From a virus (lineage: Duplodnaviria > Heunggongvirae > Uroviricota > Caudoviricetes): a DNA stretch of 33,073 nucleotides. The position numbers and the translations under genes were made by a program. Below the pieces are notes generated by a model. It made no database searches. It saw only the letters and a program-made list of their open reading frames with translations, and was not told the DNA's origin. Shown piece after piece: positions 1-23,009 of this stretch. Position 1 is the stretch's first letter, and each line of letters opens with the position of its first letter. Location of the stretch: IMG/VR virus record IMGVR_UViG_2879765931_000003; one strand, written 5' to 3'.

Positions 1-969
1 TTACACATCATTAGTACCTTCCTTATTTTTTGACTGGGACAAATTTGGGACCGATGGGTTCAGGATCGAGTCTATTTGCCGTGCGTGTTCGGTAAGGTGA
101 TTAGGTGCAAGGTGAGCATATCGACGAACCATTTCGATAGACTCCCAGCCTCCCATTTCCTGTAACACTGACAACGGGACTCCGGCTTGAACCAGCCAAC
201 TTGCCCAGGTGTGTCTCAAGTCGTGAAATCTGAAATCATCAATACCAGCCCGTCTCAGCGCCGCTTTCCAGGCTGTGTTTGCGTCATACCGCATCTTCCT
301 TACTGTTGGCGCTTTCGTTCCGTCTGGTTTGGTACAGCTTTCCTTGTACACAAATACCCAACGGTGATGATTCCCGATTTGTTTTTTCAATACGCGACAT
401 GCAGTATCATTCAGCGCAACGCCAATTGCGCGGTTTGATTTACTCTCTTCCGGGTTTATCCATGCCACCCGGCGCTGCATATCTATTTGTTGCCATTCAA
501 GGTTGATGATGTTCGAGCGTCTTAAGCCTGTTGCCAGTGCAAATTCAACAACAGACTTTAATGGCTCCGGACATTCATCAATCAGCCTTTGTGCTTCATG
601 GGGCTCCAGCCAGCGGATCCGTTTATTCTTTGGTTGAGGCACTTTAATAATTGGTGCCTTATCCAGCATTTTCCATTCACGCTCTGCGGCTCTTAGTAGG
701 GCCTTTATAAATGAAAGATGCGTAGCCTTCGTTGCAACGGACGCTGGTTTTGGCGTGTATTCTGGAACAGGTTTCCCTTTTTTTCTGCATGCTTCTGCCC
801 TGAGTTTCCAGTTTTCCTCATGACGCCGGTTCGTCATTTTCTGCATTGCTGAATAAATTTTTGATTCAGTGATGTCTCTTAGTTGCATCCCTGCGAAATG
901 TTGAAGCCAGAATCCGATCCGGCTTTTGTCATCGTCCAGTGATTTCTTATGTGCTTTCTCTTCGAGCCA
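1..969 (-). pseudogene. int: Phage tyrosine integrase, copy A: C-terminal ~320 codons, with the 5' part severed by IS600
   Basis: ORF ends ...[18 protein letters not shown]...[23 protein letters not shown]...TNDV* with stop at 1-3; the R..H..R..Y catalytic region is typical of tyrosine recombinases. Near-identical to the int at 11513-13942. Reading frame runs into the IS600 end at 970. Confidence 0.85.
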
Positions 970-1012
970 TGAGGTGTACTGGCAATAGCGGACACTACCA
1001 TTTGTTCTTTTT

Positions 1013-1831
1013 TTAAGCAGCCATCTGATGATATTTTTCCCTGAAGGCAGCCGGGGAGATATTCCCCAGACGAGAGTGACGACGCTGACGATTGTAGAAA
1101 ATCTCAATGTATTCCCGTATTACTGAGATGGCTTCATCCCGGTTATTAAAACGATAGTGGCTCAGGCTCTCATTTTTCAGCGTTCCCCAGAAGCTTTCCA
1201 TCGGAGCGTTGTCGTAACAGTTACCTTTACGCGACATTGATGTTTTCAGACCAAACTGCTCCTGTATGACCCGGTAATCGTATGCGCAGTACTGTGAACC
1301 TCGATCAGAGTGGTGGATTAGCCCGGCAGGTGGGCGCTGGCTCCTGAGCGCCATAAACAGGGCTTTACCTGTCAGCTCTTTTGTCATGCGCTCTCCCATG
1401 GCGTAGCCGACAATTTCGCACGTATAAACATCTTTGATACCAGCGAGGTACAACCATCCCTCCTGTGTGGCAACATACGTCAGGTCCGCCACCCAGACCT
1501 GATTTGGTGCTGTAGGAGCGAACGTCTGGTTCAGCAGATTTGGCGCAACAGGCAGATTGTGGTTCGGGTTCGTAGTCGCTCTGAACTTGCGTTTCTGCTT
1601 ACAGCGTAGCCTCAGCTCCTTACGAAGACGTGCCAGTCGGTCACGACCAACGATGATGCCATTCTCTGCCAGCTCCGTCTGGAGCCGCCGGGTTCCATAT
1701 GTTTCGCGAGTGCGGATATGTGCCACCTTAATCTCCAGTTTTAGCCGCTCATCACTTTGTTTTCTGTCTGAGGGTTCATGCTGTACCCAGTTGTAATAAC
1801 CGCTCCTGGATACACCAAATACCTGACACAT
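1013..1831 (-). CDS. IS600 OrfB (DDE transposase catalytic component)
   Basis: 272 aa, HSDRGSQY...[17 protein letters not shown] motif region; downstream of orfA in -1 frame. Confidence 0.88.
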
Positions 1832-1866
1832 CGCTTCAATGGGAAATTGTTGTCGCCATTGTTCGA

Positions 1867-2169
1867 TTAACGCGTATTTTTCAGCGACTCCTGTGCAAAA
1901 TACGCTGTTGCTTTTTTTAATATATCGCGCTCAAGGCGAGCTTCATTTAACGCCTTACGCAGTTGCAGAATTTCAGATTCCAGTTCAGCCACCGTGCGGG
2001 AACCAGGAGTACCGAGCCCTTTTCTGGCGGCGGTAACCCATTGTCCTAAAGTGCCTTCAGGAAGAGATAATCGGGAAGCGCCTTCACTGATCGAAAGTTG
2101 ATTTTCAAGAACCGTTCTGACAGCTTCGGCTTTGAACTCTTTAGAGTAACGTTGGGTTTTTCTGCTCAT
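1867..2169 (-). CDS. IS600 OrfA (transposase N-terminal HTH component)
   Basis: MSRKTQRYSKEFKAEAVRTV...LERDILKKATAYFAQESL, 100 aa, IS3-family OrfA pattern. Confidence 0.88.
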   Translation of the reverse strand: MSRKTQRYSKEFKAEAVRTVLENQLSISEGASRLSLPEGTLGQWVTAARKGLGTPGSRTVAELESEILQLRKALNEARLERDILKKATAYFAQESLKNTR

Positions 2170-2233
2170 TATTAGCTCCTTCTGATGCCATTCTATTTCA
2201 GGAAGGAGTGTCCGTTAAACTCAGGCTACCTCA

Positions 2234-2746
2234 CTTTGCAGCGTGGTGGAGGCATCCGGTGCCAGCCTGGAGAAGGGGCGGCACGATCAGTTGCTTACCG
2301 CACTTCGCGCGCTGCTGTTAAGCCGCAAGAATCCGTTTGGCGATATCAAATCGGATGGCACGGTGAAAACGGCTCTCGAAAACCTTGGTTTGGGAGAAGC
2401 AGCTAAAAGGAATGTAGGTACAGGGGCGAATCAGATACCTGATATGAGCCTGTTCGCGTCAAGTAATACCGCAACGGCTGCTGCGCAAAAATTTCCGTCT
2501 GGATTAATTTTACAGTGCGGTCAGTTGAATGGCTCCCCTAATGTATCTTCAACATACGGGATGAGGTTCCCGATGACATTCTCAAGAGTCCTTGCTGTCA
2601 CAGTTACATTGAACGTTACTGGCGCGTCAGGGCAGCCGACTGTATCGGCGACAAATGTCCAGAACACTGGATTTGATATTACAGTGTCGCCCGGTTCAGG
2701 ATATGGTTCATCTGCTGATGCGTATTACATTGCAATGGGATATTAA
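2234..2746 (+). pseudogene. Side tail fibre protein, C-terminal fragment (N-terminus removed by IS600)
   Basis: ...[29 protein letters not shown]...[12 protein letters not shown]...[18 protein letters not shown] is the conserved C-terminal region of lambdoid/T-even-like tail fibres; in-frame open from the IS600 boundary. Confidence 0.7.
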
Positions 2747-2750
2747 CGAA

Positions 2751-3158
2751 ATGTCATATTTTTATTCTGCATCGACAAACGGATTTTATTCGACTGAATT
2801 TCACGGCACCAATATTCCTGATGATGCAGTGGAAATCTCGGAATCAGAGTGGAAAACACTGATTAATTCGCAGAGTGTAACAAAAATGATTACCTGTGGT
2901 GAGAATGGTCACCCTGTCATTGTTGACCGTCCTTCTCCAACACCAGAACAATTAGCCTTAATAAATAATGAAAAGAAATCTGCACTGATAGCAGAGGCAA
3001 CGAATGTAATAGCGCCGCTTCAGGATGCGGTTGATTTAGATATGGCAACAGATGATGAAACGAAACTGTTACTGGCATGGAAAAAATATCGCGCACTATT
3101 GATGCGTGTTGATATAAAAAATACAGAGTGGCCGAAAAAACCAGAGAGCAATCTATAA
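2751..3158 (+). CDS. tfa: Tail fibre assembly protein (Tfa-like chaperone)
   Basis: Starts MSYFYSASTNGFYSTEF..., the typical Tfa N-terminus, immediately after the fibre gene stop; 135 aa. Confidence 0.65.
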   Translation: MSYFYSASTNGFYSTEFHGTNIPDDAVEISESEWKTLINSQSVTKMITCGENGHPVIVDRPSPTPEQLALINNEKKSALIAEATNVIAPLQDAVDLDMATDDETKLLLAWKKYRALLMRVDIKNTEWPKKPESNL

Positions 3159-3326
3159 GAGAAAATTCGTTATTGGATGAAAAGCGAGACATCTAATTAT
3201 AACAGCATATGGTTTTTCTAATGATAGCTCCTTCAACTTTATAGTATCTCATATACTCTAGAATATAGCTCTAAATGAGGGTTTGTTGTATACGGCAACC
3301 ACTCCATTTTTATTCCTGATAGGGAT

Positions 3327-3352
3327 ATAACCCGTCGAAAAAGACGGGTTAT
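3327..3352. terminator. Putative hairpin between convergent tfa and gtrC
   Basis: ataacccgtc-gaaaaa-gacgggttat inverted repeat in the convergent intergenic region; no strong T-tract. Confidence 0.3.
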
Positions 3353-3391
3353 TCATTCGTTAGTGTGGTTTATATGGTAGGGGGCAATTTA

Positions 3392-4913
3392 CTATAGGTT
3401 AAGTTTTTTGTTAAATACTAATATTACTCTTCCTTCAAAGTTCAAAACTTCGTCAGGCTTACCTAATTGTTCTTGAATACCTGCAAGGCAGGATGTCATT
3501 TCTTTACATCGTTCAGGTTCGTTAGCTATGGAAACTGCTATAAACTGTCGCTCAGGAGCAGAATTGAACGCCTCCTTGCTATGCCAAGAAGCCAGTGTCT
3601 GTTGTCTCACGCCAGTAAAGTTAATTTTCCCCGAATCAGCATTAAAGAAAACAGGAGTTATCTGTATGTCCCCACCAGATAACCAATTTACAGTCATTGA
3701 CAAATCCCAAAAAGAGCCGTACCCATAATGGAGATTATTTTTTTTTAAAAAATCAATGTATGATTTAACAATCTTCTCCTGATCGTGTAATGGTGAAGCA
3801 TTATTTGTGTAAGATTTAATTGAACTGATCGAAAATAAAAATGCGATTAGATAAAATAATATCTTTGCTTTTGTTGATGTACCGATACAGCACAATATCA
3901 GTGCGAAACAGGTAACATTCATAAAGAAACGCATGCTAATATAATCAGGGGATTTATAGCTCAGTATGAATGATGAGACAATACCTGCGATAGATAATAA
4001 TGAAAATAACACAATATAAATACGGTATGTGTTTTTTTTTATTGTCCGATAAAACAAACCACGCAGATGTAATAATGGCAATGAACCAAATGACAAATGA
4101 GGCGTAAGATGTTGCGTTATTGTCGACAACTAATAAATTAAGACTTTTTCCTATTAACAGAATGCACCATTTTGCATTTAAAATCATATCATTGAGTGAT
4201 ACAATTTCAAATTGGTGGGGAGGTATGTTAAGTAGATTTTGCAATACATTGGAAAGAGAGATTAAACATGCAAATAGTATTAATGCAGTATGCTTAAATA
4301 ATTTTTTATCCCATACAGAGAATAAAAAGTAAGATATTAATAGTGGAATAAGAAATGCAGCTGTAAACCACGGATCGGATACGCTGGAAAATAATGCTGT
4401 CAAACTTAAGAGGAGAGTGATAAATATATTTTTATACTGTATGTTGAAAACAGATATAAGCAAGCATAAAAAGCCGAAAGCGTTTGTTGAATTATGAGAA
4501 AAAGGATGTGATACAAAACCATAAGTGTATGAAAAATATGGTATTAGAGATAGAAGTATAATAGAAAATAAAGCAGGGGTAAACCCGAATGCCTTACGTA
4601 GCGTTAACATCGCTGCTATTACTATAGCAATAGAGAAAACTGCAGTTGATAATCTTAATGCTACTAAGCCATCATCACCTAACAGCATATAAAATAAAAA
4701 GTTAATTGGGTAAACGGTGAAATACCAATTATCCACGGTTGGTTTCCAGTCGTGGATTGATGATATACCATTCTCTAAAATATGCCTCCATACAATTGGG
4801 CTGTTAGCAACATCCGGTTCAACTGGAAAGTATCTGGTAGTCAACCAAGTTATTAGGAGTGCTGATAAAGCCAATAATATTTTTAATGCTGATTGTTTAA
4901 TACATATGCTCAT
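3392..4913 (-). pseudogene. GtrC-family type-specific O-antigen glucosyltransferase, read in two frames that overlap at a T9 (coding-strand A9) run at 4032-4040
   Basis: Polytopic membrane protein directly downstream of gtrA-gtrB in the usual gtrABC arrangement. ORF 3954-4913 (319 aa) and ORF 3392-4129 (245 aa) both cross the A9 run in different frames; a +/-1 change in the run would give one ~506-aa protein. Very AT-rich. Confidence 0.7.
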
Positions 4914-4915
4914 GG

Positions 4916-5836
4916 TTATTTTCTACCTTTCTTCAAAATATACTTAGGTCTTGATTTTGTTTCTAAGTAAATTCTACCTATATATTCACCGAGAACACCA
5001 ATCCCGATCAGTTGCACTCCACCCAAGAAAAGTATTGATACAAGCAGGGAGGGATACCCGCGTACTGGGTTACCAAAGACAAGGGTGTCTATAATCATCC
5101 ATGCACCATATAAAAATGAAATGCTTGCAACAAACAAGCCTATATAAGTCCATACGCGAAGAGGAAAGGTTGAAAAACTTGTGATACCTTCCAGTGCCAG
5201 ATTCCATAATTTCCAGCCATTAAATTTTGAGATGCCAGCAACACGCTCTGCGCGTACATATTCAACGACATCCGTCTGACCACCCACCCAGCTCAGTATG
5301 CCTTTCATGAAAAGATTGCGCTCAGGCAACAGTTTAATGTTCTCCACAACCTCACGAGACATGAGTCGAAAATCTCCGACATTTTCCTCGATCTTTGGGG
5401 TGCTTATTTTGTTGTGTAATTTATAGAACCACTCAGCTGTCTTACGTTTCAGTCGTCCATCAGTTGAGCGGTCTGAACGTTTAGCAAGCACCATCTCAGC
5501 ACCTGCCTGCCACTTTTCAATAAGATGAGGGATAACCTCAATTGGGTCTTGCAGGTCGACATCAATAGGAATTACAGCATCGCCGCTTGCATGGTCTAAC
5601 CCTGCAAATAAGGCTGGTTCTTTACCAAAGTTGCGTGTAAATGACAGCGGAACAACTAGCGGGTCTGAAACAGCCAGCGCGTTAATAATTGACTCTGTGG
5701 CATCTTTACTTCCGTCATTTATGAATACAATTTCTACTTCATATGGCTTCAACTCTTGGAATTCACGTACCGTTTTATAGAAAACAGGTATCGCTTCTTC
5801 TTCATTGAAGACAGGAACGACAAGAGATATTTTCAT
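4916..5836 (-). CDS. gtrB: Bactoprenol glucosyltransferase GtrB (GT2 family)
   Basis: 306 aa; [20 protein letters not shown]...DGSKD...D.D..D GT2 motifs and C-terminal TM segments; 2 bp upstream of gtrC. Confidence 0.92.
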
Positions 5837-6195
5837 TTCGCATCCCTAAAGACAATGAACTTTGAATAGACGAAACCGCACACCAGACTGATGGCGGAGA
5901 AGGTGATAAGAGTGACTATTGGAGGAAGTGAGCATTTATCAGCTGCCCAACCAACAATCACACTCAATATTCCCATAAATCCCACGTATAACATGTAGCG
6001 CATCGCTGTAGTCGATGCTTTGAATGTGAATCTTGCATTCGCGAAGAAGCTAAAGCTCACAGCCACTACGAAACCTGTGAAGTTTGCCAGAGCCTGACTG
6101 GTATGTGCGGTATAGATACATACACCAAAAACCACCCAGTGTATAAGTGTGTTCAGCACACCTATAGATGTGTACTTTACAAATAACTTTAACAT
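5833..6195 (-). CDS. gtrA: GtrA flippase-like small membrane protein
   Basis: 120 aa, [25 protein letters not shown]...[11 protein letters not shown]; overlaps the gtrB start by 4 nt. Confidence 0.92.
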
Positions 6196-6267
6196 TTATT
6201 TAATCAATGAGCTCTGAAAGGCATGAAGTCTATCATCCAAGTCTCAATTGATCGATACTTGCTATGT

Positions 6268-6320
6268 CTGATGAGACAAAACTGAGACACATAAGGCCTC
6301 ACAATGGCTTGCAAGGCTTT
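6268..6320 (-). promoter_or_regulatory. Conserved upstream block shared with the acyltransferase locus (candidate promoter/leader of the conversion cassette)
   Basis: Reverse complement AAAGCCTTGCAAGCCATTGTGAGGCCTTATGTGTCTCAGTTTTGTCTCATCAG matches 14168-14220 at 43 of 53 positions; both lie about 73-125 nt upstream of the start codon. Confidence 0.45.
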
Positions 6321-6396
6321 ACATGTTTTGATGTGGTGGGACGTGTGAGCGCAGTGTTGATGGGATAATCCTTTGAATTACAAGCGGATTCTTATA

Positions 6397-6442
6397 ATTC
6401 GTAATGCGAAGGTCGTAGGTTCGACTCCTATTATCGGCACCA
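6397..6442 (+). other. Phage attachment-site core: 46-nt 3' end of tRNA-Thr (thrW-type), not an intact tRNA
   Basis: ATTCGTAATGCGAAGGTCGTAGGTTCGACTCCTATTATCGGCACCA is the anticodon-loop-to-CCA portion of tRNA-Thr(CGU) as I recall it; the upstream sequence does not continue the tRNA. Confidence 0.8.
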
Positions 6443-6456
6443 TTTAAATCAATAAG

Positions 6457-6815
6457 TTACCTCGCATTTAAGTAAACTACGTTCTCCTCTTGTGCCGTAT
6501 TTGTGCCATTGCGACTTATAATCGCATCGATTTTGCTCGCGTGCTCGGTGAGATGCCCGGCTGAAAGGTGGGCGTATCTTTGAACCATTTCGAGAGTTTC
6601 CCATCCTCCCATCTCTTTAAGCGCAAGAAGAGAGACACCGGACTGAACCAGCCAGCTTGCCCAGGTATGCCTCAGGTCATGGAAGCGGAAGTTGCTAATG
6701 CCTGCCCGCTTTAACGCTCCCTTCCATGCCTTGTTGCTGTCGGTTCTCATCTTCCTTACCGCTGCTGTTTTTGTTCCGTCGCTTCGGTAGGCAGGTTTGG
6801 TGTGGACAAACACCC
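6457..6815 (-). pseudogene. int: Phage tyrosine integrase, C-terminal fragment (a third, divergent int), 5'-truncated by IS600
   Basis: ...[55 protein letters not shown]...; stop lies 14 nt from the att core, the same geometry as int copy B. Confidence 0.8.
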
Positions 6816-6858
6816 TGAGGTGTACTGGCAATAGCGGACACTACCATTTGTTCTTTTT

Positions 6859-7677
6859 TTAAGCAGCCATCTGATGATATTTTTCCCTGAAGGCAGCCGG
6901 GGAGATATTCCCCAGACGAGAGTGACGACGCTGACGATTGTAGAAAATCTCAATGTATTCCCGTATTACTGAGATGGCTTCATCCCGGTTATTAAAACGA
7001 TAGTGGCTCAGGCTCTCATTTTTCAGCGTTCCCCAGAAGCTTTCCATCGGAGCGTTGTCGTAACAGTTACCTTTACGCGACATTGATGTTTTCAGACCAA
7101 ACTGCTCCTGTATGACCCGGTAATCGTATGCGCAGTACTGTGAACCTCGATCAGAGTGGTGGATTAGCCCGGCAGGTGGGCGCTGGCTCCTGAGCGCCAT
7201 AAACAGGGCTTTACCTGTCAGCTCTTTTGTCATGCGCTCTCCCATGGCGTAGCCGACAATTTCGCACGTATAAACATCTTTGATGCCAGCGAGGTACAAC
7301 CATCCCTCCTGTGTGGCAACATACGTCAGGTCCGCCACCCAGACCTGATTTGGTGCTGTAGGAGCGAACGTCTGGTTCAGCAGATTTGGCGCAACTGGCA
7401 GATTGTGGTTCGGGTTCGTAGTCGCTCTGAACTTGCGTTTCTGCTTACAGCGTAGCCTCAGCTCCTTACGAAGACGTGCCAGTCGGTCACGACCAACGAT
7501 GATGCCATTCTCTGCCAGCTCCGTCTGGAGCCGCCGGGTTCCATATGTTTCGCGAGTGCGGATATGTGCCACCTTAATCTCCGGTTTTAGCCGCTCATCA
7601 CTTTGTTTTCTGTCTGAGGGTTCATGCTGTACCCAGTTGTAATAACCGCTCCTGGATACACCAAATACCTGACACAT
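6859..7677 (-). CDS. IS600 OrfB
   Basis: 272 aa DDE transposase. Confidence 0.88.
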   Translation of the reverse strand: MCQVFGVSRSGYYNWVQHEPSDRKQSDERLKPEIKVAHIRTRETYGTRRLQTELAENGIIVGRDRLARLRKELRLRCKQKRKFRATTNPNHNLPVAPNLLNQTFAPTAPNQVWVADLTYVATQEGWLYLAGIKDVYTCEIVGYAMGERMTKELTGKALFMALRSQRPPAGLIHHSDRGSQYCAYDYRVIQEQFGLKTSMSRKGNCYDNAPMESFWGTLKNESLSHYRFNNRDEAISVIREYIEIFYNRQRRHSRLGNISPAAFREKYHQMAA

Positions 7678-7712
7678 CGCTTCAATGGGAAATTGTTGTC
7701 GCCATTGTTCGA

Positions 7713-8015
7713 TTAACGCGTATTTTTCAGCGACTCCTGTGCAAAATACGCTGTTGCTTTTTTTAATATATCTCGCTCAAGGCGAGCTTCATTTAACGCC
7801 TTACGCAGTTGCAGAATTTCAGATTCCAGTTCAGCCAGCGTGCGGGAACCAGGAGTACCGAGCCCTTTTCTGGCGGCGGTAACCCATTGTCCTAAAGTGC
7901 CTTCAGGAAGAGATAATCGGGAAGCGCCTTCACTGATCGAAAGTTGATTTTCAAGAACCGTTCTGACAGCTTCGGCTTTGAACTCTTTAGAGTAACGTTG
8001 GGTTTTTCTGCTCAT
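7713..8015 (-). CDS. IS600 OrfA
   Basis: 100 aa, near-identical to the other copies. Confidence 0.88.
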   Translation of the reverse strand: MSRKTQRYSKEFKAEAVRTVLENQLSISEGASRLSLPEGTLGQWVTAARKGLGTPGSRTLAELESEILQLRKALNEARLERDILKKATAYFAQESLKNTR

Positions 8016-8177
8016 TATTAGCTCCTTCTGATGCCATTCTATTTCAGGAAGGAGTGTCCGTTAAACTCAGGCTACCTCAGACGTCCCGTATGATGGATAT
8101 GAAATCAAGACAATCACACATCCTGAACCGCCCCGGGAATCCTGGAGACTAAACTTCCTGAGAAAGAGGTAAACAGG

Positions 8178-8500
8178 ATGACTAAAAATACTCGTTTTTC
8201 CCCCGAAGTCCGTCAACGGGCAGTCCGTATGGTTCTGGAAAGTCAGGGCGAATATGACTCACAATGGGCGACAATTTGTTCCATTGCCCCAAAGATTGGC
8301 TGTACGCCGGAGACTCTGCGTGTCTGGGTTCGCCAGCATGAGCGGGATACCGGGGGCGGTGATGGAGGGCTCACCACCGCTGAACGTCAGCGTCTGAAAG
8401 AGCTGGAGCGTGAAAATCGTGAACTGCGCCGCAGTAACGATATCCTTCGCCAGGCTTCCGCTTATTTTGCGAAGGCGGAGTTCGACCGCCTCTGGAAAAA

Positions 8501-8504
<4 letters not shown>
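8178..8504 (+). CDS. IS629-like OrfA
   Basis: 108 aa HTH/leucine-zipper OrfA of the IS3 family. Confidence 0.82.
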
Positions 8505-9387
<883 letters not shown>

Positions 9388-9429
9388 GTTCACAGATAAA
9401 ACACTCTCCAGGAAACCCGGGGCGGTTCA

Positions 9430-10035: not shown

Positions 10036-10092
10036 TGGAGCCATACAGCCTCACACTCGATGAGGCCTGTCATTTTCTCAAGATTGAAGTGG

Positions 10093-11296
<1,204 letters not shown>

Positions 11297-12294
11297 CTCT
11301 GTTCAGGTGGCCAAATTCAGTGTGCCACTTCAGATATCCAGACCGACTGCCATTAACTGGATACGCACAGGGCGTCTTCAGGCAACACGCAAAGATCCCA
11401 CTAAGAATAAATCTCCTTACCTCACAACACGACAAGCCTGCATTGCGGCTCTTCAGTCTCCGCTGCATACTGTCCAGGTGAGCGCGGGTGATGGCATAAC
11501 AGAGGAAAGAAAATGTCACTCTTCCGCAGAGGTGAAATATGGTACGCCAGTTTCACATTGCCGAACGGTAAAAGATTTAAACAGTCTCTTGGAACAAAGG
11601 ACAAAAGGCAGGCGACAGAACTCCATGACAAGCTAAAGGCTGAAGCATGGCGGGTCAGCAAACTTGGTGAAATACCTGATATAACGTTCGAGGAAGCGTG
11701 TGTCAGGTGGCTTGAAGAGAAAGCACATAAAAAATCACTGGACGATGACAAAAGCCGGATCGGATTCTGGCTTCAACATTTCGCAGGAATACAACTAAGA
11801 GACATTACTGAATCAAAAATTTATTCAGCAATGCAGAAAATGACGAACCGGCGTCATGAGGAAAACTGGAAACTCAGGGCAGAATCATGCAGAAAAAAAG
11901 GGAAACCTGTTCCAGAATACACGCCAAAACCAGCGTCCGTTGCAACGAAGGCTACGCATCTTTCATTTATAAAGGCCCTACTAAGAGCCGCAGAGCGTGA
12001 ATGGAAAATGCTGGATAAGGCACCAATTATTAAAGTGCCTCAACCAAAGAATAAACGGATCCGCTGGCTGGAGCCCCATGAAGCACAAAGGCTGATTGAT
12101 GAATGTCCGGAGCCATTAAAGTCTGTTGTTGAATTTGCACTGGCAACAGGCTTAAGACGCTCGAACATCATCAACCTTGAATGGCAACAAATAGATATGC
12201 AGCGCCGGGTGGCATGGATAAACCCGGAAGTGAGGTAGCCTGAGTTTAACGGACACTCCTTCCTGAAATAGAATGGCATCAGAAGGAGCTAATA

Positions 12295-12597
12295 ATGAGC
12301 AGAAAAACCCGACGTTACTCTAAAGAGTTCAAAGCCGAAGCTGTCAGAACGGTTCTTGAAAATCAACTTTCGATCAGTGAAGACGCTTCCCGATTATTCC
12401 TTCCTGAAGGCACTTTAGGACAATGGGTTACCGCCGCCAGAAAAGGGCTCGGTACTCCTGGTTCCCGCACGGTGGCTGAACTGGAATCTGAAATTCTGCA
12501 ACTGCGTAAGGCGTTAAATGAAGCTCGCCTTGAGCGAGATATATTAAAAAAAGCAACAGCGTATTTTGCACAGGAGTCGCTGAAAAATACGCGTTAA
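12295..12597 (+). CDS. IS600 OrfA
   Basis: 100 aa. Confidence 0.88.
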   Translation: MSRKTRRYSKEFKAEAVRTVLENQLSISEDASRLFLPEGTLGQWVTAARKGLGTPGSRTVAELESEILQLRKALNEARLERDILKKATAYFAQESLKNTR

Positions 12598-12632
12598 TCG
12601 AACAATGGCGACAACAATTTCCCATTGAAGCG

Positions 12633-13451
12633 ATGTGTCAGGTATTTGGTGTATCCAGGAGCGGTTATTACAACTGGGTACAGCATGAACCCTCAGACAG
12701 AAAACAAAGTGATGAGCGGCTAACACTGGAGATTAAGGTGGCACATATCCGCACTCGCGAAACATATGGAACCCGGCGGCTCCAGACGGAGCTGGCAGAG
12801 AATGGCATCATCGTTGGTCGTGACCGACTGGCACGTCTTCGTAAGGAGCTAAGGCTACGCTGTAAGCAGAAACGCAAGTTCAGAGCGACTACGAACCCGA
12901 ACCACAATCTGCCAGTTGCGCCAAATCTGCTGAACCAGACGTTCGCTCCTACAGCACCAAATCAGGTCTGGGTGGCGGACCTGACGTATGTTGCCACACA
13001 GGAGGGATGGTTGTACCTCGCTGGCATCAAAGATGTTTATACGTGTGAAATTGTCGGCTACGCCATGGGAGAGCGCATGACAAAAGAGCTGACAGGTAAA
13101 GCCCTGTTTATGGCGCTCAGGAGCCAGCGCCCACCTGCCGGGCTAATCCACCACTCTGATCGAGGTTCACAGTACTGCGCATACGATTACCGGGTCATAC
13201 AGGAGCAGTTTGGTCTGAAAACATCAATGTCGCGTAAAGGTAACTGTTACGACAACGCTCCGATGGAAAGCTTCTGGGGAACGCTGAAAAATGAGAGCCT
13301 GAGCCACTATCGTTTTAATAACCGGGATGAAGCCATCTCAGTAATACGGGAATACATTGAGATTTTCTACAATCGTCAGCGTCGTCACTCTCGTCTGGGG
13401 AATATCTCCCCGGCAGCCTTCAGGGAAAAATATCATCAGATGGCTGCTTAA
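12633..13451 (+). CDS. IS600 OrfB
   Basis: 272 aa. Confidence 0.88.
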   Translation: MCQVFGVSRSGYYNWVQHEPSDRKQSDERLTLEIKVAHIRTRETYGTRRLQTELAENGIIVGRDRLARLRKELRLRCKQKRKFRATTNPNHNLPVAPNLLNQTFAPTAPNQVWVADLTYVATQEGWLYLAGIKDVYTCEIVGYAMGERMTKELTGKALFMALRSQRPPAGLIHHSDRGSQYCAYDYRVIQEQFGLKTSMSRKGNCYDNAPMESFWGTLKNESLSHYRFNNRDEAISVIREYIEIFYNRQRRHSRLGNISPAAFREKYHQMAA

Positions 13452-13956
13452 AAAAGAACAAATGGTAGTGTCCGCTATTGCCAGTACACCTCAAAGAGAG
13501 TAAATCAAACCGCGCAATTGGCGTTGCGCTGAATGATACTGCATGTCGCGTATTGAAAAAACAAATCGGAAATCATCACCGTTGGGTATTTGTGTACAAG
13601 GAAAGCTGTACCAAACCAGACGGAACGAAAGCGCCAACAGTAAGGAAGATGCGGTATGACGCAAACACAGCCTGGAAAGCGGCGCTGAGACGGGCTGGTA
13701 TTGATGATTTCAGATTTCACGACTTGAGACACACCTGGGCAAGTTGGCTGGTTCAAGCCGGAGTCCCGTTATCAGTGTTACAGGAAATGGGAGGCTGGGA
13801 GTCTATCGAAATGGTTCGTCGATATGCTCACCTCGCACCTAATCACCTTACCGAACACGCACGGCAAATAGACTTGATTCTGAACCCATCGGTCCCAAAT
13901 TTGTCCCAGTCAAGAAATAAGGAAGGTACTAATGATGTGTAACTTATTGATTTTAA

Positions 13957-14002
13957 TGGTGCCGATAATAGGAGTCGAACCTACGACCTTCGCATTACGA
14001 AT
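13957..14002 (-). other. Second phage attachment-site core: 46-nt tRNA-Thr 3' end in inverse orientation, not an intact tRNA
   Basis: TGGTGCCGATAATAGGAGTCGAACCTACGACCTTCGCATTACGAAT is the reverse complement of the core at 6397-6442; the 14-nt spacer to the int stop is nearly identical at both sites. Confidence 0.8.
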
Positions 14003-14290: not shown

Positions 14291-15463
14291 ATGCATATGA
14301 TTGAAATTAACAGTTTATTATTAATAACATCCGTGATATTGATGTCGTTATTAGCTGTGGGGTTATTTGATAAAATTTCCCCAATAAATCTTGTTGAGCA
14401 CGGCAGGAATAATCAAATAGATGGAATGCGGGGGTTCTTAGCAATTTTCGTGCTTATTCATCACGCAGCAATTTGGAATGGATACTTGTCATCTGGAGTA
14501 TGGGAAGCACCTTCATCAAATCTGTTAGCAAATTTAGGCCAAGTTGGTGTGTCATTCTTTTTTATGATTACTGGTTATCTGTTCTTTTCAAAGATTATCT
14601 CTGGAGATCAGGACTGGACAAGGCTTTATGTATCAAGATTACTACGATTAACCCCAATGTTCATAGTTAGCCTATGTCTCATTTTTATCATTGTAGGTTT
14701 TAAGTCTGGATGGAGAATGCAGGTATCCACAGAAGAGCTTTTTGTGTCAATAATGAAGTGGTTGCCATTCACTGCGCTAGGTATGCCGAACATTAATGAC
14801 GTAAAAGATTCATTTACTATCAATGCCGCTGTAACATGGACACTTGTATATGAATGGTTCTTTTATTTTTCTCTTCCGGTAATTTCCGCGCTCATAAAAA
14901 GAAAAGTCAGTATTTACATGGTTATGATTAGCGCAATATCGCTATTTGTTTTCATTTTATTTTTCAGTAAAATACACATAGCATCATTTCTTTTTGGGCT
15001 CCTGGCATTTTTGCTAAATAAATCAAAGATAGTCAATGGAATTGCCAAAGCAAAAGTAACACCAATTATAATAACTGCGATAATGGTTTTTGAAATGACG
15101 TATTTCAAAACAACTTACGCACCGCTACCACTGATTCTTTGTGGAATAACATTTATCATTATCGCATCAGGTTGTGATTTGTATGGAATATTAAGATTAA
15201 ATATAACCAGAAAGCTAGGAGAAACTACCTACAGCGTTTACCTTCTGCATGGGATATTCCTTTATTGCCTAATGACGTGGATTATTCCTAATAATTACAC
15301 TGAAAATACATTTATCATACTGGTAAGCACAACTGCATTTCTTATTACGTTCACATCATGCCTAACTTTTAAATTAATAGAGACGCCATTCATCAAATTA
15401 ACAAAACAAACCACAACTTTAGTAAAAGAATTAATACCCACATTAACAAACAACAATCAATAA
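14291..15463 (+). CDS. Acyltransferase family 3 integral membrane protein; candidate O-antigen O-acetyltransferase (Oac-like) conversion gene
   Basis: 390 aa, multi-TM; N-terminal ...DGMRGFLAIFVLIHH... and ...SFFFMITGYLF... motifs of acyltransferase-3 enzymes; occupies the cargo slot between att/int and the tailspike; AT-rich. The exact start (14291 or 14297) is uncertain. Confidence 0.78.
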   Translation: MHMIEINSLLLITSVILMSLLAVGLFDKISPINLVEHGRNNQIDGMRGFLAIFVLIHHAAIWNGYLSSGVWEAPSSNLLANLGQVGVSFFFMITGYLFFSKIISGDQDWTRLYVSRLLRLTPMFIVSLCLIFIIVGFKSGWRMQVSTEELFVSIMKWLPFTALGMPNINDVKDSFTINAAVTWTLVYEWFFYFSLPVISALIKRKVSIYMVMISAISLFVFILFFSKIHIASFLFGLLAFLLNKSKIVNGIAKAKVTPIIITAIMVFEMTYFKTTYAPLPLILCGITFIIIASGCDLYGILRLNITRKLGETTYSVYLLHGIFLYCLMTWIIPNNYTENTFIILVSTTAFLITFTSCLTFKLIETPFIKLTKQTTTLVKELIPTLTNNNQ

Positions 15464-15516: not shown

Positions 15517-16224
15517 TTATATTAGTCTGGTAATGCTAAATGCAAACGAACTGGAGATTCCTGCCCCGCTAAGCGTATTGCGCAGGGTCACCCTAAATGT
15601 ATCTACGCCAATATAAGTAACATCACAACTAACTGAATCAGGCGCAGATATAGGTGTTATCTGCACAATATAACCGCTAGCAACTGCTGCGAGCGGATGA
15701 GAAAAGCTAACATCATACACACCTGTAGAAACCACGTTAACCGATGAAACACCAGTAGCAACGTCGATACTACCATTGGCGTTAATTTTTCCCGAGCGTG
15801 TGACTGACAATGCAGAAGCCGATGTTACCTTACTGGTTGTTTCTGTAAAAACACACCCAATGTCAACTACCTCGCAATTAGCTCCTGTTATCCAGTATGG
15901 TCGTTCTGCACTTGGCTGATAATCCCCTGCGCTCTGGAACGTTGTGCCGTTGAGTATGACTGTAACTTTTCCCCCACCTGAGCTTGTTACTTGAATATTC
16001 GTGTGCGTGTATCTTGCACTGCTCACGCGATGAAAATTTCCACCGTTTATAACCACAGTTACAGGGCGCGTCCCAGTATTATCTATAGCAAGGTCTGCCC
16101 CCCCGGCATTAGCCTCAAAGTATGGGTTGTTTAATACCAAAGCGCACGAACCGTTAAGGCCATTTATAGCTAATTGCGCACCACCTGTACTGGAATCCCC
16201 CTGAGTACCATTTCCTTCACAAGT
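15517..16224 (-). pseudogene. Tailspike / tail-fibre receptor-binding protein, C-terminal ~235-aa fragment (N-terminus removed by IS600)
   Basis: Reading frame open from the IS600 boundary to the stop at 15517; Gly/Ser/Thr/Asn-rich beta-strand-like repeats; position downstream of the ejection genes as for P22 gene 9. Confidence 0.5.
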
Positions 16225-16266
16225 TGAGGTGTACTGGCAATAGCGGACACTACCATTTGTTCTTTT

Positions 16267-17085
16267 TTAAGCAGCCATCTGATGATATTTTTCCCTGAAG
16301 GCAGCCGGGGAGATATTCCCCAGACGAGAGTGACGACGCTGACGATTGTAGAAAATCTCAATGTATTCCCGTATTACTGAGATGGCTTCATCCCGGTTAT
16401 TAAAACGATAGTGGCTCAGGCTCTCATTTTTCAGCGTTCCCCAGAAGCTTTCCATCGGAGCGTTGTCGTAACAGTTACCTTTACGCGACATTGATGTTTT
16501 CAGACCAAACTGCTCCTGTATGACCCGGTAATCGTATGCGCAGTACTGTGAACCTCGATCAGAGTGGTGGATTAGCCCGGCAGGTGGGCGCTGGCTCCTG
16601 AGCGCCATAAACAGGGCTTTACCTGTCAGCTCTTTTGTCATGCGCTCTCCCATGGCGTAGCCGACAATTTCGCACGTATAAACATCTTTGATGCCAGCGA
16701 GGTACAACCATCCCTCCTGTGTGGCAACATACGTCAGGTCCGCCACCCAGACCTGATTTGGTGCTGTAGGAGCGAACGTCTGGTTCAGCAGATTTGGCGC
16801 AACTGGCAGATTGTGGTTCGGGTTCGTAGTCGCTCTGAACTTGCGTTTCTGCTTACAGCGTAGCCTCAGCTCCTTACGAAGACGTGCCAGTCGGTCACGA
16901 CCAACGATGATGCCATTCTCTGCCAGCTCCGTCTGGAGCCGCCGGGTTCCATATGTTTCGCGAGTGCGGATATGTGCCACCTTAATCTCCGGTTTTAGCC
17001 GCTCATCACTTTGTTTTCTGTCTGAGGGTTCATGCTGTACCCAGTTGTAATAACCGCTCCTGGATACACCAAATACCTGACACAT
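16267..17085 (-). CDS. IS600 OrfB
   Basis: 272 aa. Confidence 0.88.
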   Translation of the reverse strand: MCQVFGVSRSGYYNWVQHEPSDRKQSDERLKPEIKVAHIRTRETYGTRRLQTELAENGIIVGRDRLARLRKELRLRCKQKRKFRATTNPNHNLPVAPNLLNQTFAPTAPNQVWVADLTYVATQEGWLYLAGIKDVYTCEIVGYAMGERMTKELTGKALFMALRSQRPPAGLIHHSDRGSQYCAYDYRVIQEQFGLKTSMSRKGNCYDNAPMESFWGTLKNESLSHYRFNNRDEAISVIREYIEIFYNRQRRHSRLGNISPAAFREKYHQMAA

Positions 17086-17448
17086 CGCTTCAATGGGAAA
17101 TTGTTGTCGCCATTGTTCGATTAACGCGTATTTTTCAGCGACTCCTGTGCAAAATACGCTGTTGCTTTTTTTAATATATCTCGCTCAAGGCGAGCTTCAT
17201 TTAACGCCTTACGCAGTTGCAGAATTTCAGATTCCAGTTCAGCCAGCGTGCGGGAACCAGGAGTACCGAGCCCTTTTCTGGCGGCGGTAACCCATTGTCC
17301 TAAAGTGCCTTCAGGAAGAGATAATCGGGAAGCGCCTTCACTGATCGAAAGTTGATTTTCAAGAACCGTTCTGACAGCTTCGGCTTTGAACTCTTTAGAG
17401 TAACGTTGAACCGCCCCGGGTTTCCTGGAGAGTGTTTTATCTGTGAAC

Positions 17449-18331
<883 letters not shown>

Positions 18332-18335
<4 letters not shown>

Positions 18336-18658
18336 TTTTTCCAGAGGCGGTCGAACTCCGCCTTCGCAAAATAAGCGGAAGCCTGGCGAAGGATATCGTT
18401 ACTGCGGCGCAGTTCACGATTTTCACGCTCCAGCTCTTTCAGACGCTGACGTTCAGCGGTGGTGAGCCCTCCATCACCGCCCCCGGTATCCCGCTCATGC
18501 TGGCGAACCCAGACACGCAGAGTCTCCGGCGTACAGCCAATCTTTGGGGCAATGGAACAAATTGTCGCCCATTGTGAGTCATATTCGCCCTGACTTTCCA
18601 GAACCATACGGACTGCCCGTTGACGGACTTCGGGGGAAAAACGAGTATTTTTAGTCAT
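18332..18658 (-). CDS. IS629-like OrfA
   Basis: 108 aa, identical to copy 1. Confidence 0.82.
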
Positions 18659-18783
18659 CCTGTTTACCTCTTTCTCAGGAAGTTTAGTCTCCAGGATTCC
18701 CGGGGCGGTTCACGTTGGGTTTTTCTGCTCATTATTAGCTCCTTCTGATGCCATTCTATTTCAGGAAGGAGTGTCCGTTAAAC

Positions 18784-20514
18784 TCAGGCTACCTCAACTC
18801 TCTTTTCAATAGGGTCAAGGTTTTTCATCCCGCCAAGATCTTCTGCCACCTGTTTGAGCATTGACCTTGTTGATGGCGCATCAATTTTTGCACCTGCAGG
18901 CATCGCCTTTTCAACATTGCGATAAAGCTGGTCGCTTCGTTTCATCAGCGCAGACATTCTTCCATTGACCGTATCAATAAACTTGTCGCTCATACCAAGA
19001 GCATCTTTTGCACCGGAAACGCGATCAATTATCTCACCCGCGCCCTGTGCTAGCTGCCTGATTGCTTCATTTTCCTGCACCTGTAGAGCAGAACCCGCAC
19101 GGGACTTGATTGCTTGCTCAACTGCCTTGTATTGCTCGTTCCCGGAAAAGTGTGAAGGGAGTAATGAATCAACATTAAGCCTTTCAGCAGACTCCAGAAC
19201 TTCAGCCTGAGGATTGATATCTAGTTCATCAAGCGATGAAGCGAGATTTGGCCTTTTTTGTGCTGCTACTGTGCGAACGACTTCCTCTGGGTTCTTCGTC
19301 GCAGGCGTCATTGGTACACCTTGTGCTACTCTTGCCTCTGCGGCATGAACCGCAGGATTTGTTGCTGCAGCGGCATCACCGGAGAATGGTGATGTTTCTG
19401 TTGGCGCAGTGGTCGCTCTCTGTGCAGATGTTTTATTGCCACTAATTATATTTGATGCACCACGAACACCACGGGTAACGCCATTTATCAGGCCATGCGT
19501 AGCAATGCTAAGTCCGGCATTAATAGCGGCATTTTCGGCAAAATCACCCCGTTGATTCGCCGCGTCAGCGAGAGAACCAATGACCATGTTTCCAGCTACA
19601 CCTGCTCCAGGAACAAGATAACCGCCTATTGACTCTCCAGCTTGCGCGTAGGGGTCTGTCGGTCTGTCTACTGGACGATAAACATCATCCAATACTTTTG
19701 GCCCCCCAAGCCCCTGACTGATTGCATTAATCAGACTTGCGCCACCCTGCAATACGTCAAATGGTATGTTTACCAGACCACGACCAGCCTGTTCTGCAAT
19801 TTGCCCTGCACTTTGACCACCAGTGAGCCAATCGCCAGCTTGTTGCATCAATGATGGTTCTTCCCGTGTTGGTGCATTATTGGCCTGATTAACTGTTTGT
19901 TGCTGAACAGGTTTCGGTGCGACAGAACTTACGGGTTGAGGTGGCTGCTGACTGGCTGCCTGCTGCTCAATCTGAGCAAATGGATTATTTGGGTCTGACT
20001 GCACACCTGATGCCGATACTTGTTCGGATGACTGTACTTCCAGTTGTGCAAACGGGTTGTTAGGGTCTTGCTGAGGATGTACCTTTGCAGAGGTGGCGCG
20101 CTGTTCGACTGTTGAGTCTGTCACCGGGTCACCAGCCCATTGAGCAAAGCGATCATCAACGTAACCGCGGCCTTCAGGTCCTGGCGTATATTCACCACGC
20201 TTTGCCTTCATAACGTTGCCGGGACCGTCGTGATAAGCCTGAAGAGCGTCACGCCAGTTACCAAACTGCTGGTACATCTTTGCCAGATAGCGCGCGCCAG
20301 CGTCAGCCTGATATTCGGGGTTTTGCATTTGCTCATCGGTATAACCCATATCACGCCATGTCCCAGGCATGACCTGAGTCAATCCTACAGCCCCGGCGGA
20401 GCTTACTGCGGCAGGGTTGTAAGAAGACTCCTTGGCACCCAGTGCAGTCATCAACCCTTCTGGCACACCGTAACGTGCGCCAGCCTGCTCTAACAAATCA
20501 CGGTAATTAGCCAT
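18784..20514 (-). CDS. Ejection (injection) protein at the P22 gp16 position, with an N-terminal lytic-transglycosylase (SLT)-like domain; C-terminus replaced by the IS600 end
   Basis: 576 aa; ...[28 protein letters not shown]...[11 protein letters not shown]... resembles SLT motifs; the last codons and the stop lie within the IS600 terminal repeat. Confidence 0.6.
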
Positions 20515-21846
20515 TTACTGCCCCAAAGATGGAAGATATCCGTAGCGATTAATGAAGTCGATTGACAGCTCGGGGTGCTGCTTCAGGTAATCTATAGAAG
20601 CCTGAGGCGCTTCCACTCGCTTGATACCGTTTTGCTGAACGTACTTACCAACCGCCTCATTACGCTTCTGGTTGAGCGTGTTCAGGATGACGCCAGCGTT
20701 GCGACGAAAGGACTCCTCGCTCTGCGAGTTCTGCAGCGAACCAACAGCCTGGTCGAGCTTTTTGCCCTCGGCATCAGAAAGTGCGCCCATGCCTCGCATG
20801 GCCTGAACCGCTGTCAGGTATGCTTGTGATTTAAAGGTATCAAGTCGTGCCTGAGTGTCTGCAGCCTGTGAGCCTGGAACGTTGGGGATTACTCCACGTA
20901 AGCCTGTAATGCTCTTAAGTGAAGGAGAACTAACGATATCGTTCAGAGTGAACATGCTGGTTGTGAGGGTGTTGATGCCGTCTTTGTAGCCATCATTTAG
21001 CGCTTGCTGCTTCTGCTGCAACTGCTGGTTGTTGGCTGCTATGCGGCTCTGTATTTCCTGGCGCTTCAGGTCGTTAGTTTCTGCTGATAGCATCCGGTCA
21101 AGGCGCTTATTTTCGTTGTTAATGCGGTTTGTTTCTGCGTCCAGATTAATGCGCTGCTGACCTAAATTCGCCTGGATATCTTGTCCGCGCATTGTGATTG
21201 CCTGATTCCGAGCGGCGGTTTGCGAATCCAGATCCTGACCGCGCATGGTAACCTGGCGACCCTGCATTTTATCCTGTAGGTCAAAGTATTTTTCGGGCCC
21301 GAGACTGTTCATCCCCAGGTGATCGACAAATTCGCCGAACTGCCGCGGGTTCTGTTGGTACATCTGAGCGACGTCATGAGGATTAACGCCAACACGAGCT
21401 AACTCACCGGCGTTGTTTTGCAGCCATGATTGCATTGCTTCTGGAGACGATGACGCAAGGCGTGCGCCAGCCGCTAAGGTGCCGATAGAATTACGCTGCT
21501 CTTCATCAATGAATCCCATGCCTTTACGAACGGATTCAATCTGGTCTGGATATTGAGTAGCCAACTGACGCAAAGCACCGCGATCACCAGACGCATAAGC
21601 ATTAGCGTACGCCTGCTGAAATTCTTTCTGCCGCTGAGCCTGCTTTTCCTGCTGAAAAACACCCGCAATACCTGAAAGACCTTGCAAAGCAGTCAGCCCA
21701 ACATTGTTAGCGCCTGAACGCTCAATATCATTGTTCTGCCTGATAAGCTGAAGCGTATTGCCGATGTCATTTACGCTCGGAGCGTTTGAGTTGACGCCGC
21801 CGATACCAGCCAACAATCCGCCGTTTGTTCCTTGCCAAGTAGCCAT
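20515..21846 (-). CDS. Ejection protein at the P22 gp20 position
   Basis: 443 aa, coiled-coil/Gln-rich, synteny between gp7-like and gp16-like genes. Confidence 0.6.
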   Translation of the reverse strand: MATWQGTNGGLLAGIGGVNSNAPSVNDIGNTLQLIRQNNDIERSGANNVGLTALQGLSGIAGVFQQEKQAQRQKEFQQAYANAYASGDRGALRQLATQYPDQIESVRKGMGFIDEEQRNSIGTLAAGARLASSSPEAMQSWLQNNAGELARVGVNPHDVAQMYQQNPRQFGEFVDHLGMNSLGPEKYFDLQDKMQGRQVTMRGQDLDSQTAARNQAITMRGQDIQANLGQQRINLDAETNRINNENKRLDRMLSAETNDLKRQEIQSRIAANNQQLQQKQQALNDGYKDGINTLTTSMFTLNDIVSSPSLKSITGLRGVIPNVPGSQAADTQARLDTFKSQAYLTAVQAMRGMGALSDAEGKKLDQAVGSLQNSQSEESFRRNAGVILNTLNQKRNEAVGKYVQQNGIKRVEAPQASIDYLKQHPELSIDFINRYGYLPSLGQ

Positions 21847-21855
21847 GATTACCCC

Positions 21856-22548
21856 TTAAAACAACGAGCCAAGCAATCCGATACCAGCACCAATACCAGC
21901 GCCCCAAGGCGTTGATGTTCCCAAAAGGCTGGCAAGACCTGCACCGGCAATCGCACCAGACGTGCCACCGCTAATTGCAGTCTGAAGACTTGATGGTTTA
22001 TTGGCATTAGCAGCGGCAAGAGCTGCGCTTTGCTGTGCAATGCTGCTCATGTTGTTGGCGTACGTCTGCCCGGCGTTTGCCTGACCTTGCAGCGCACCAA
22101 GCCCAACGTTTGCCAGATTGTTGTAATTGCTCATCTGATTTGATAACCAAGACTGACCGAGTGTCGGCGCGATCGTAGCCAGTTGATTGCTTGTGGCTGT
22201 CGAACCAAGTCCACCCGTCGCCTCCGCAGCAGCAAGACTCTGGTAACGCGCCTGCCCTGCAAGGTCTTTATACTGCTTAGAGTTGTAATACTGATTAAGT
22301 GCCTGCCCCTGACCTTCTAAACTGGAAAGGTTCTGAAGCTGGTTAACATACTGCTCCGCAAGAGGCGTGAACGGAGCAAGGTTTTTCATGATCGTCTGCC
22401 ACTGCTGATTTTGCAGGTCTGCAGCATACTTCTGGGCTTCTGCTGCATACTTTGCGCTTTTATCAGAACTGCCACCTTTCCCGCCTTTTTCAGGGCAATA
22501 AGGTTCCTCGCCGCGCAGTTTTCTGCCCAGCTTAAATGCATATAACAT
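21856..22548 (-). CDS. Ejection protein, P22 gp7-like
   Basis: 230 aa, MLYAFKLGRKLRGEEPYCPEKGGKGGS..., Gly/Ala-rich C-terminal hydrophobic tail. Confidence 0.7.
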   Translation of the reverse strand: MLYAFKLGRKLRGEEPYCPEKGGKGGSSDKSAKYAAEAQKYAADLQNQQWQTIMKNLAPFTPLAEQYVNQLQNLSSLEGQGQALNQYYNSKQYKDLAGQARYQSLAAAEATGGLGSTATSNQLATIAPTLGQSWLSNQMSNYNNLANVGLGALQGQANAGQTYANNMSSIAQQSAALAAANANKPSSLQTAISGGTSGAIAGAGLASLLGTSTPWGAGIGAGIGLLGSLF

Positions 22549-22550
22549 GG

Positions 22551-23009
22551 CTATCTCCCGTGATTCAGGAAGTCGATTAGTTCTTCGCGTGTGGCGCTGT
22601 AAAAAGTCACGTCATCCACGCCTTTGAAGTATTTCTTGATGGTTCCTACACGCTTAAGGCCAATCATTGCGCAGTACATCTGACCGTGTCGGAATTTGCG
22701 TGCAGCGAACGATGTTACGCACTGAACGGTGGTGTTAGTCAGAATGTATCGCCAGAACGCCAGCCCAATTTCCTTGCTGAAGCCGCGAATCTCTGGCAGG
22801 TACATGGCGTGGCAATCTAATGTCAGCGGCTGAATCTCCTGATAGTAAACAATGCCGCCAAACTGACCGTGCACGTTCACCTCAAAGTAACGGCATTCAG
22901 GTTTGTAGTCGTATCCATCACCGTTGTTGCTCCCGGCGATAATGTCAGGGTGATTTCCGACTGCTTCTATCAGGTCGATGTTTCGCGTTGGTTTGAATGT
23001 AATCATCAC
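22551..23009 (-). CDS. P22 gp14-like protein (assigned by position)
   Basis: 152 aa between the needle and gp7-like genes; assignment by synteny only. Confidence 0.45.

Follow-up and report, generated by a model that had tools for sequence, protein, structure and literature searches.

The window, the whole stretch of 33,073 nucleotides analysed here, belongs to the Shigella flexneri chromosome CP026871.1 and adjoins proA-proB, as found by exact-protein look-up. It carries, near a phage att site, three genes on the same strand in the order of a gtrA-gtrB-gtr(type) operon, the first two of which are intact: gtrA (5833–6195, minus strand) encodes a flippase-type small membrane protein of 120 aa (Pfam PF04138 GtrA_DPMS_TM, E 1.7e-14), and gtrB (4916–5836, minus strand) a bactoprenol glucosyltransferase of 306 aa (Pfam PF00535 Glycos_transf_2, E 3.7e-30), which differs at one residue from the GtrB of the serotype-converting phage SfI and whose exact protein is widespread. 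The two genes overlap by ATGA, and an 11-nt spacer precedes the third, which occupies positions 3392–4913 (minus strand; 1,522 bp) and is frameshifted as recorded. This third gene is 99.9% identical over its full length to gtrI of SfI (JX509734, 1,521 bp). In a base-by-base alignment, 1,520 of the 1,521 aligned bases match, the only differences being one additional T at 4032–4040 and a G/A substitution at 4352. The split gene is gtrI, encoding the SfI-type serotype I (type I antigen) O-antigen glucosyltransferase. The first-pass annotation of this DNA had proposed a type-specific glucosyltransferase in the gtrC position downstream of gtrA-gtrB, an assignment confirmed by the SfI match and by the intact gtrAB pair; its further view, that the modification encoded could not be told from the sequence, does not hold, as the near-identity to SfI gtrI points to the type I antigen.

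At the level of sequence, a GT-C/PMT-like fold can be made out only faintly in this product. Its match to Pfam PMT_2 is weak (E 0.0059; 17.3 bits, below the cut-off of 26.1), searches of the NCBIfam models and of the PDB by sequence gave no match to GtrI, and RefSeq names the product 'glycosyltransferase family 39 protein'. The G+C content of gtrI is 33%, versus 42% for gtrAB and 48% for the window. A working GtrI would add the type I glucose to the GlcNAc of the S. flexneri O-antigen repeat, the donor presumably being undecaprenyl-phosphate-glucose made by GtrB and flipped by GtrA.

The lesion lies in a run of exactly nine T at 4032–4040, that is A9 on the coding (minus) strand, where the wild type has A8. 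The tract codes for Lys-Lys-Asn (AAA AAA AAC, codons 292–294), and the additional A displaces the reading frame from codon 294 onward (…SDNKK|N…). The last 212 codons are no longer in phase, and gtrI as recorded has no uninterrupted reading frame. The 5' ORF (3954–4913, minus strand) begins with an ATG and encodes 319 aa, made of 294 native GtrI residues followed by 25 out-of-frame ones (RefSeq WP_242441423.1). An overlapping 3' ORF (3392–4129, minus strand) encodes the remainder of the protein in a different frame and also passes through the T9 run, and a 180-aa ORF from an internal ATG has been annotated in the 3' part of the gene (WP_242441422.1). These coordinates agree with the original description of a gene split at a nine-T run that both ORFs traverse. 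When the tract was edited in silico, A8 gave a single ORF of 506 aa and A11 one of 507 aa, whereas with A7, A9, and A10 the reading frame was broken at 316–319 aa. The intact length of about 506 aa first proposed was therefore right, and the accompanying statement that one base more or fewer would heal the gene was half right: one base fewer does so, one base more does not, and among the lengths tried only the removal of one base or the addition of two restored the frame.

Once repaired, the protein differs from GtrI (UniProt Q9RPZ5 cluster) by F188L only, a missense change (TTT to CTT) at 4352 on the minus strand that interrupts a T6 run. This change is private to the window: it was found neither in SfI, nor in the E. 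coli prophage copy, nor in eight other complete S. flexneri genomes. A hydropathy scan of the repaired protein placed about 9–10 hydrophobic segments in the part up to residue ~369 and a hydrophilic tail of ~140 residues after it. The frameshift falls in a short loop, SDNKKNTYR, with predicted helices at 268–291 and 294–320 on either side, and the out-of-frame 3' part of gtrI (3392–4031, minus strand) encodes the last three predicted membrane helices and the hydrophilic C-terminal domain of ~140 aa. Because the recorded 319-aa product lacks these three helices and the entire C-terminal domain, it is predicted to be inactive (null). The sequence is thus that of the gtrI gene and, as recorded, that of a pseudogene.

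The surroundings of the operon are those of a heavily rearranged prophage. Positions 2234–6460 of the window are collinear with SfI and comprise a tail-fibre remnant, a tail-fibre assembly gene, gtrI, gtrB, gtrA, and the att core. The tail-fibre and tail-fibre-assembly remnants (2243–3158, plus strand; Pfam Gp53-like_C and Caudo_TAP) are cut at 2236 by an IS3-family element (967–2236, minus strand) that encodes an orfA of 100 aa and an orfB of 272 aa (NCBIfam transpos_IS3, E 8e-100) and which, from these ORF sizes, we take to be IS600-like. An identical 1.27-kb copy lies on the other side of the remnant (6813–8079), and two further copies elsewhere in the window bring the total to four. The att core, resembling the 3' end of a tRNA-Thr (6397–6460, no strand assigned), borders the gtr cluster and matches the SfI attP core; a second, inverted copy is found at 13939–14002. 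Integrase fragments are located at 1–969, 6457–6831, and 11513–13942, the last of them split by the same IS3-family element. Farther to the right there are oacB (14291–15463), identical to the phage-type O-acyltransferase B region of Sf101, and an IS-truncated P22-like prophage. The gtr operon itself sits in an SfI-type prophage of which IS3-family elements have left a remnant of 4.2 kb, located at thrW/proA-adrA.

Erosion of this extent, with four IS3-family copies, split integrases, and truncated tail genes, might suggest that the frameshift is ancient and became fixed in a lineage for which gtrI has no further use, the locus decaying together with the prophage. We rejected this scenario as very unlikely and close to refuted. 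Eight other complete S. flexneri genomes have the same IS-flanked, eroded remnant, and in each of them gtrI is intact (506 aa), which implies that prophage erosion is not what killed the gene; moreover, gtrI carries a single lesion, with no second stop or indel, and the allele occurs in no other assembly.

We then considered whether the tract itself is remarkable. The window contains only two homopolymer runs of at least eight bases, both within gtrI, and AAA accounts for 20 of the 26 Lys codons of this gene. When the codons of gtrI itself were shuffled without changing the protein, 88% of the permutations contained one or more A/T runs of at least eight bases and 45% contained two or more. 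The tract is thus readily explained as a chance product of Lys-Lys-Asn codons in an AT-rich gene, and selection for a hypermutable tract was rejected as an explanation, given that synonymous permutation yields such runs so easily. What is not trivial is the frameshift relative to other gtrI copies, rather than the existence of the tract.

The three explanations put forward at the outset, namely a real inactivation, a slippage-prone tract, and a sequencing error, were the correct candidates, and the comparison of tract length across isolates that had been advised with them could be carried out in silico. It gave A8 as the norm, A7 as a recurrent variant, and A9 as unique to CP026871.1. SfI, an E. 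coli prophage, and the eight complete S. flexneri genomes all have eight A at this tract. Alleles were then counted by exact look-ups of their predicted products among ~15 billion proteins, the counts being those of contigs and not of independent events. Intact GtrI with F188 (506 aa) was found on 895 contigs, and the A8 to A7 allele (316 aa) on 22, seven A being confirmed in the DNA of the three A7 contigs that we fetched, all Illumina-derived. The A8 to A9 allele on the F188 background (319 aa) was found on none among these ~15 billion proteins, and on the L188 background (319 aa) on a single contig, CP026871.1 itself; the 319-aa A9 product is absent from every short-read (Logan) assembly. 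L188 with an intact A8 tract (506 aa) was recovered from exactly one contig, a short-read Logan contig of 3,362 bp, and L188 was otherwise unseen.

The second long run of gtrI, T9 at 3738–3746 on the minus strand (coding A9, gene positions 1167–1175), is in frame in both the window and the wild type (…FLKKNN…). Its A9 to A8 deletion (405 aa; 26 contigs) is the commonest gtrI frameshift allele in public assemblies, and its A9 to A10 insertion (392 aa) was found on no contig. At the adjoining T6 run, a change to T7 (392 aa) was present on six contigs and a change to T5 (388 aa) on two. By comparison, two other 6-base runs, for which five ±1 variants were looked up, and a third, for which one was, gave 0 contigs for each variant. 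Altogether, the frameshift products looked up occurred on 57 contigs against ~900 intact ones, so that OFF alleles make up ~6% of contigs, and all of them mapped to the A8 run (gene positions 874–881), the A9 run (1167–1175), or the adjoining T6. The two long A runs account for 48 contigs with deletions and, apart from CP026871.1, for no insertion. They are real mutational hotspots with a strong deletion bias.

These counts bear on the possibility that the frameshift is genuine and that replication slippage added an A in the strain or in the sequenced stock, leaving gtrI a pseudogene. Such an event would stop the addition of the type I glucose and turn a 1b strain into 3b, or a 1a strain into Y, with gtrA and gtrB remaining intact. 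We regard it as quite possible, though short of probable. It would fit a gene in which slippage occurs in nature, at the A8 tract (A7), at the second run, and in both directions at the adjoining T6, while none of the six variants tested at the three shorter runs was seen; surveillance papers, too, report like events with the predicted phenotype (PMC6692546; PMC10132075; PMC5610704). The quality of the consensus likewise argues for a true change, as it shows no other indel relative to six related genomes over 8.9 kb, and F188L, the sole other private change in the part of the locus outside the IS elements, also falls within gtrI. On the other hand, the +1 allele is unique, in a gene whose two long A runs otherwise show no insertion against 48 deletion contigs, and L188 exists in frame in a short-read assembly, whereas L188 with A9 exists in none of them.

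Residual errors in PacBio RSII consensus sequences are mostly 1-base indels in homopolymers. For accessions neighbouring CP026871.1, the work cited is that of Kim et al. 2018, whose title refers to PacBio sequencing of 59 historical Shigella strains. We lean toward the view, about as apt to be right as wrong in our estimate, that the extra A is a homopolymer miscall in the consensus of this PacBio-batch record and that the strain carries an intact, working gtrI with F188L; we prefer it to a genuine recent frameshift. This view is favored because the A9 allele is a singleton limited to CP026871.1, because the eight other complete S. flexneri genomes have A8, and because a short-read assembly has the rare L188 allele with the frame intact.

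The probable origin of that short-read contig adds to the argument for a miscall. Over 11,489 bp of the P22-like region, the window is matched at 100.000% identity by an Illumina-derived Logan contig, ERR832466_172, whereas the other carriers of the same coat protein all differ from the window by several SNPs and indels, which indicates that ERR832466 comes from the same strain or from a very near relative. Strain NCDC 5797-70 is listed as ERR832473 by ShigaPass and as ERS093690 by Connor et al., and the run-to-sample offset given by this pair yields the right serotype for at least 12 more of the runs that PMC6692546 lists. By the same offset, we infer that ERR832466 is ERS093683, that is NCDC 4173-66, a lineage PG1 strain isolated in 1966 and of molecular serotype 1b, a designation that reflects gene presence and not serology. 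A strain of serotype 1b needs a working gtrI. The intact contig with L188 and A8 would come from this ERR832466 twin of the CP026871.1 strain, and it is from this assignment, together with the identification of the twin as NCDC 4173-66 (1b), that A9 is read as an error. The simplest reading is thus that the consensus was miscalled at this base or, at most, that a slip arose only in the culture used for sequencing. The catalogued serotype of the inferred twin likewise speaks against a genuine frameshift which, given the uniqueness of the allele, the in-frame L188, and the serotype 1b of the twin, would have to be very recent or restricted to a single stock.

Several observations nevertheless run counter to a consensus error. 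The twin may be closely related to the strain, or a different stock of it, in which case a recent real slip fits equally well. The consensus is perfect where it can be compared with the twin (0 differences over 11.5 kb), although this stretch has no run of at least seven bases and is thus silent on homopolymer accuracy. The second A9 run of gtrI is called correctly in CP026871.1, and the A8 tract does mutate in nature, as the A7 allele (22 contigs) attests. Four other long-read assemblies, all counted among the eight complete genomes, namely CP026765 and CP026776 from the same accession series and LR213452 and UGYU01 from NCTC, call the tract A8, which indicates that there is no systematic miscall at this position.

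In many bacteria, transcriptional slippage becomes efficient once a run of A or T reaches nine bases. One may thus ask whether the tract is functional, either as a contingency switch alternating between A8 (ON) and A9 (OFF), or as a leaky A9 giving low-level type I glucosylation, either because RNA polymerase slips (one A fewer in some transcripts) or because ribosomes slide at the lysine codons. We consider this improbable. The length of the tract is indeed polymorphic among isolates (A7, A8, and A9), the upstream operon is intact and the region upstream of it carries no private change, so that transcription is expected, and the nine-base run reaches the length of efficient slippage, for which mxiE of S. 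flexneri offers a precedent (PMC1088944). If the A9 allele is true, it could on this analysis give some A8 transcripts and a little full-length GtrI. However, the KKN peptide and the codon usage of the gene suffice to give the run by chance, the out-of-frame state is not conserved, the other copies examined being in frame with A8 and OFF alleles reaching only ~6% of contigs, and there is no A10/A11 series that would indicate repeated switching. An A8 run is also short for a replication-based switch in enterobacteria proficient in mismatch repair, which further weighs against a contingency function. The ON/OFF switch considered in the first-pass annotation thus finds no specific support, since codon usage accounts for the tract and the split layout is not conserved. 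There is likewise little chance, in our opinion, that S. flexneri lineages lose the type I antigen mainly through the A8 and A9 runs of gtrI and that these runs at the same time provide a reversible, low-frequency switch through RNA polymerase and replication slippage. Were such a reversible switch to operate, one would expect partial type I glucosylation and reversion, and an antigenic switch invisible to typing by gene presence.

The lesion belongs to a class already documented by surveillance laboratories, and the +1 described here may exist only in the assembly; our understanding of the mechanism of O-antigen glucosylation is unchanged by it. The practical consequences concern typing. Tools based on gene presence would call CP026871.1 serotype 1 (1a/1b), and tools aware of frameshifts would call it Y or 3b. 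Should the extra base prove to be an artefact of long reads, a reference-grade genome of a historical typing strain holds a false pseudogene. The gtrI positions 874–881 and 1167–1175 and the adjoining T6 merit explicit checks in typing pipelines.

Compared with known systems, the locus is closest to SfI and to the gtrI loci of S. flexneri serotype 1, with which it shares the gtrA-gtrB-gtrI order, the att core, and the downstream tail-fibre genes; unlike gtrI of SfI, the gene of the window has F188L and an A8 tract lengthened by one A. Its nearest counterparts among frameshift alleles are the A7 allele and the A8 allele of the second tract, which affect the same gene and its homopolymers by a 1-base change and lead to truncation at 316 and 405 aa, respectively. 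However, these are recurrent deletions on the F188 background, whereas the change in the window is a singleton insertion. In Neisseria and Haemophilus, LOS glycosyltransferases are turned ON and OFF through a homopolymer inside the gene. The gtrI tract differs from these in being short, explained by codon usage, and without sign of reversibility. The gtr operons of Salmonella are phase-variable through a Dam/OxyR epigenetic switch. A switch of this type was rejected here, as paired GATC sites were not found upstream of gtrA, where the 305 bp considered contain a single GATC.

In S. flexneri, mismatches between the serotype predicted from the genotype and the phenotype have been associated with single-base indels or premature stops in gtrI, gtrII, gtrX, gtrIV, and oac (PMC6692546; PMC10132075; PMC5610704). 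For instance, an indel or a premature stop in gtrI gives phenotype 3b with genotype 1b (PMC6692546; PMC10132075), and a gtrII lengthened by two A is associated with phenotype Y (PMC5610704); in surveillance, frameshifts were also flagged in 17% of 127 correctly typed genomes. The gtrI lesions reported in this way lie at other sites (position 340; a premature stop) and come from short reads, whereas that of the window comes from a PacBio-batch reference, and a +1 at the A8 tract was not found among the gtrI lesions of these papers (PMC6692546; PMC10132075; PMC5610704). The likeness to mxiE, finally, is one of layout within the same species: in mxiE, a slippage-prone run (of U in the mRNA) fuses two ORFs (PMC1088944), and in gtrI a nine-base A/T run also lies where two overlapping ORFs meet. 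The split of mxiE is, however, a conserved functional state, while that of gtrI is an exception among ~950 copies.

Besides the tract that carries the frameshift, the gtrI gene for the serotype I glucosyltransferase contains another run of nine bases (positions 3738-3746; coding A9, encoding LKKNN) that is in frame in wild-type gtrI. Among public assemblies, the −1 variant of this run, which yields a 405-aa product, is the most common frameshift allele of the gene (26 contigs, which are not necessarily independent events), and the adjoining T6 run is also variable (T7 in six contigs and T5 in two). Across the 8.9-kb locus, differences internal to insertion sequences (ISs) aside, just two changes are private: the gtrI frameshift and a missense SNP, F188L (position 4352), which was not found in the serotype-converting phage SfI, in an Escherichia coli prophage, or in eight complete Shigella flexneri genomes. 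In E. coli, gtrI was present in only 3 of 5,426 complete genomes, where it is intact, with an A8 tract at the frameshift position and 99.7-99.9% identity. In the one E. coli carrier inspected, the pork isolate YZ22MPE54 (chromosomal locus L002), the gene adjoins SfI-like baseplate and tail genes.

The window contains two inverted copies of an att core (6397-6460 and 13939-14002), which includes the 3′ terminus of a sequence resembling tRNA-Thr. ARAGORN detected no intact tRNA gene in the whole window; the intact thrW must be located beyond it or have been lost. The IS load is very high, with four copies of one IS3-family element (967-2236, 6813-8079, 12228-13494, and 16221-17406), two of a further one (8103-9429 and 17407-18733), and two of another (10085-11332 and 30232-31480); the window ends in an IS2 (31845-33073). 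These copies form large direct and inverted repeats, which could drive inversion or deletion of the gtrI and oacB blocks.

The second att core is adjoined by oacB (14291-15463), which encodes an intact O-acyltransferase B of 390 aa with an Acyl_transf_3 domain, and the nearby integrase is broken by an IS3-family element into two pieces (11513-12238 and 13478-13942). A P22-like (Sf101-like) prophage remnant follows (15517-30257), which retains intact genes for coat, scaffold, and injection functions; the tailspike (207 aa, by an IS), the gp16-like transglycosylase (576 aa), and the portal (558 aa) are shortened. Over 11,489 bp, its segment 18770-30258 matches a short-read contig of run ERR832466 with 100% identity; from run and sample numbering, this contig should be NCDC 4173-66 (PG1, serotype 1b, 1966). 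This suggests that the PacBio record represents the same historical CDC strain.

The window oacB matches the O-acyltransferase B gene of phage Sf101, and serotype 2a genomes, 2457T among them, carry the same oacB block after gtrII. In the P22-like prophage remnant, other serotype 1b strains display a commoner haplotype with genes of 265 and 202 aa, whereas the window haplotype carries genes of 282 and 230 aa.
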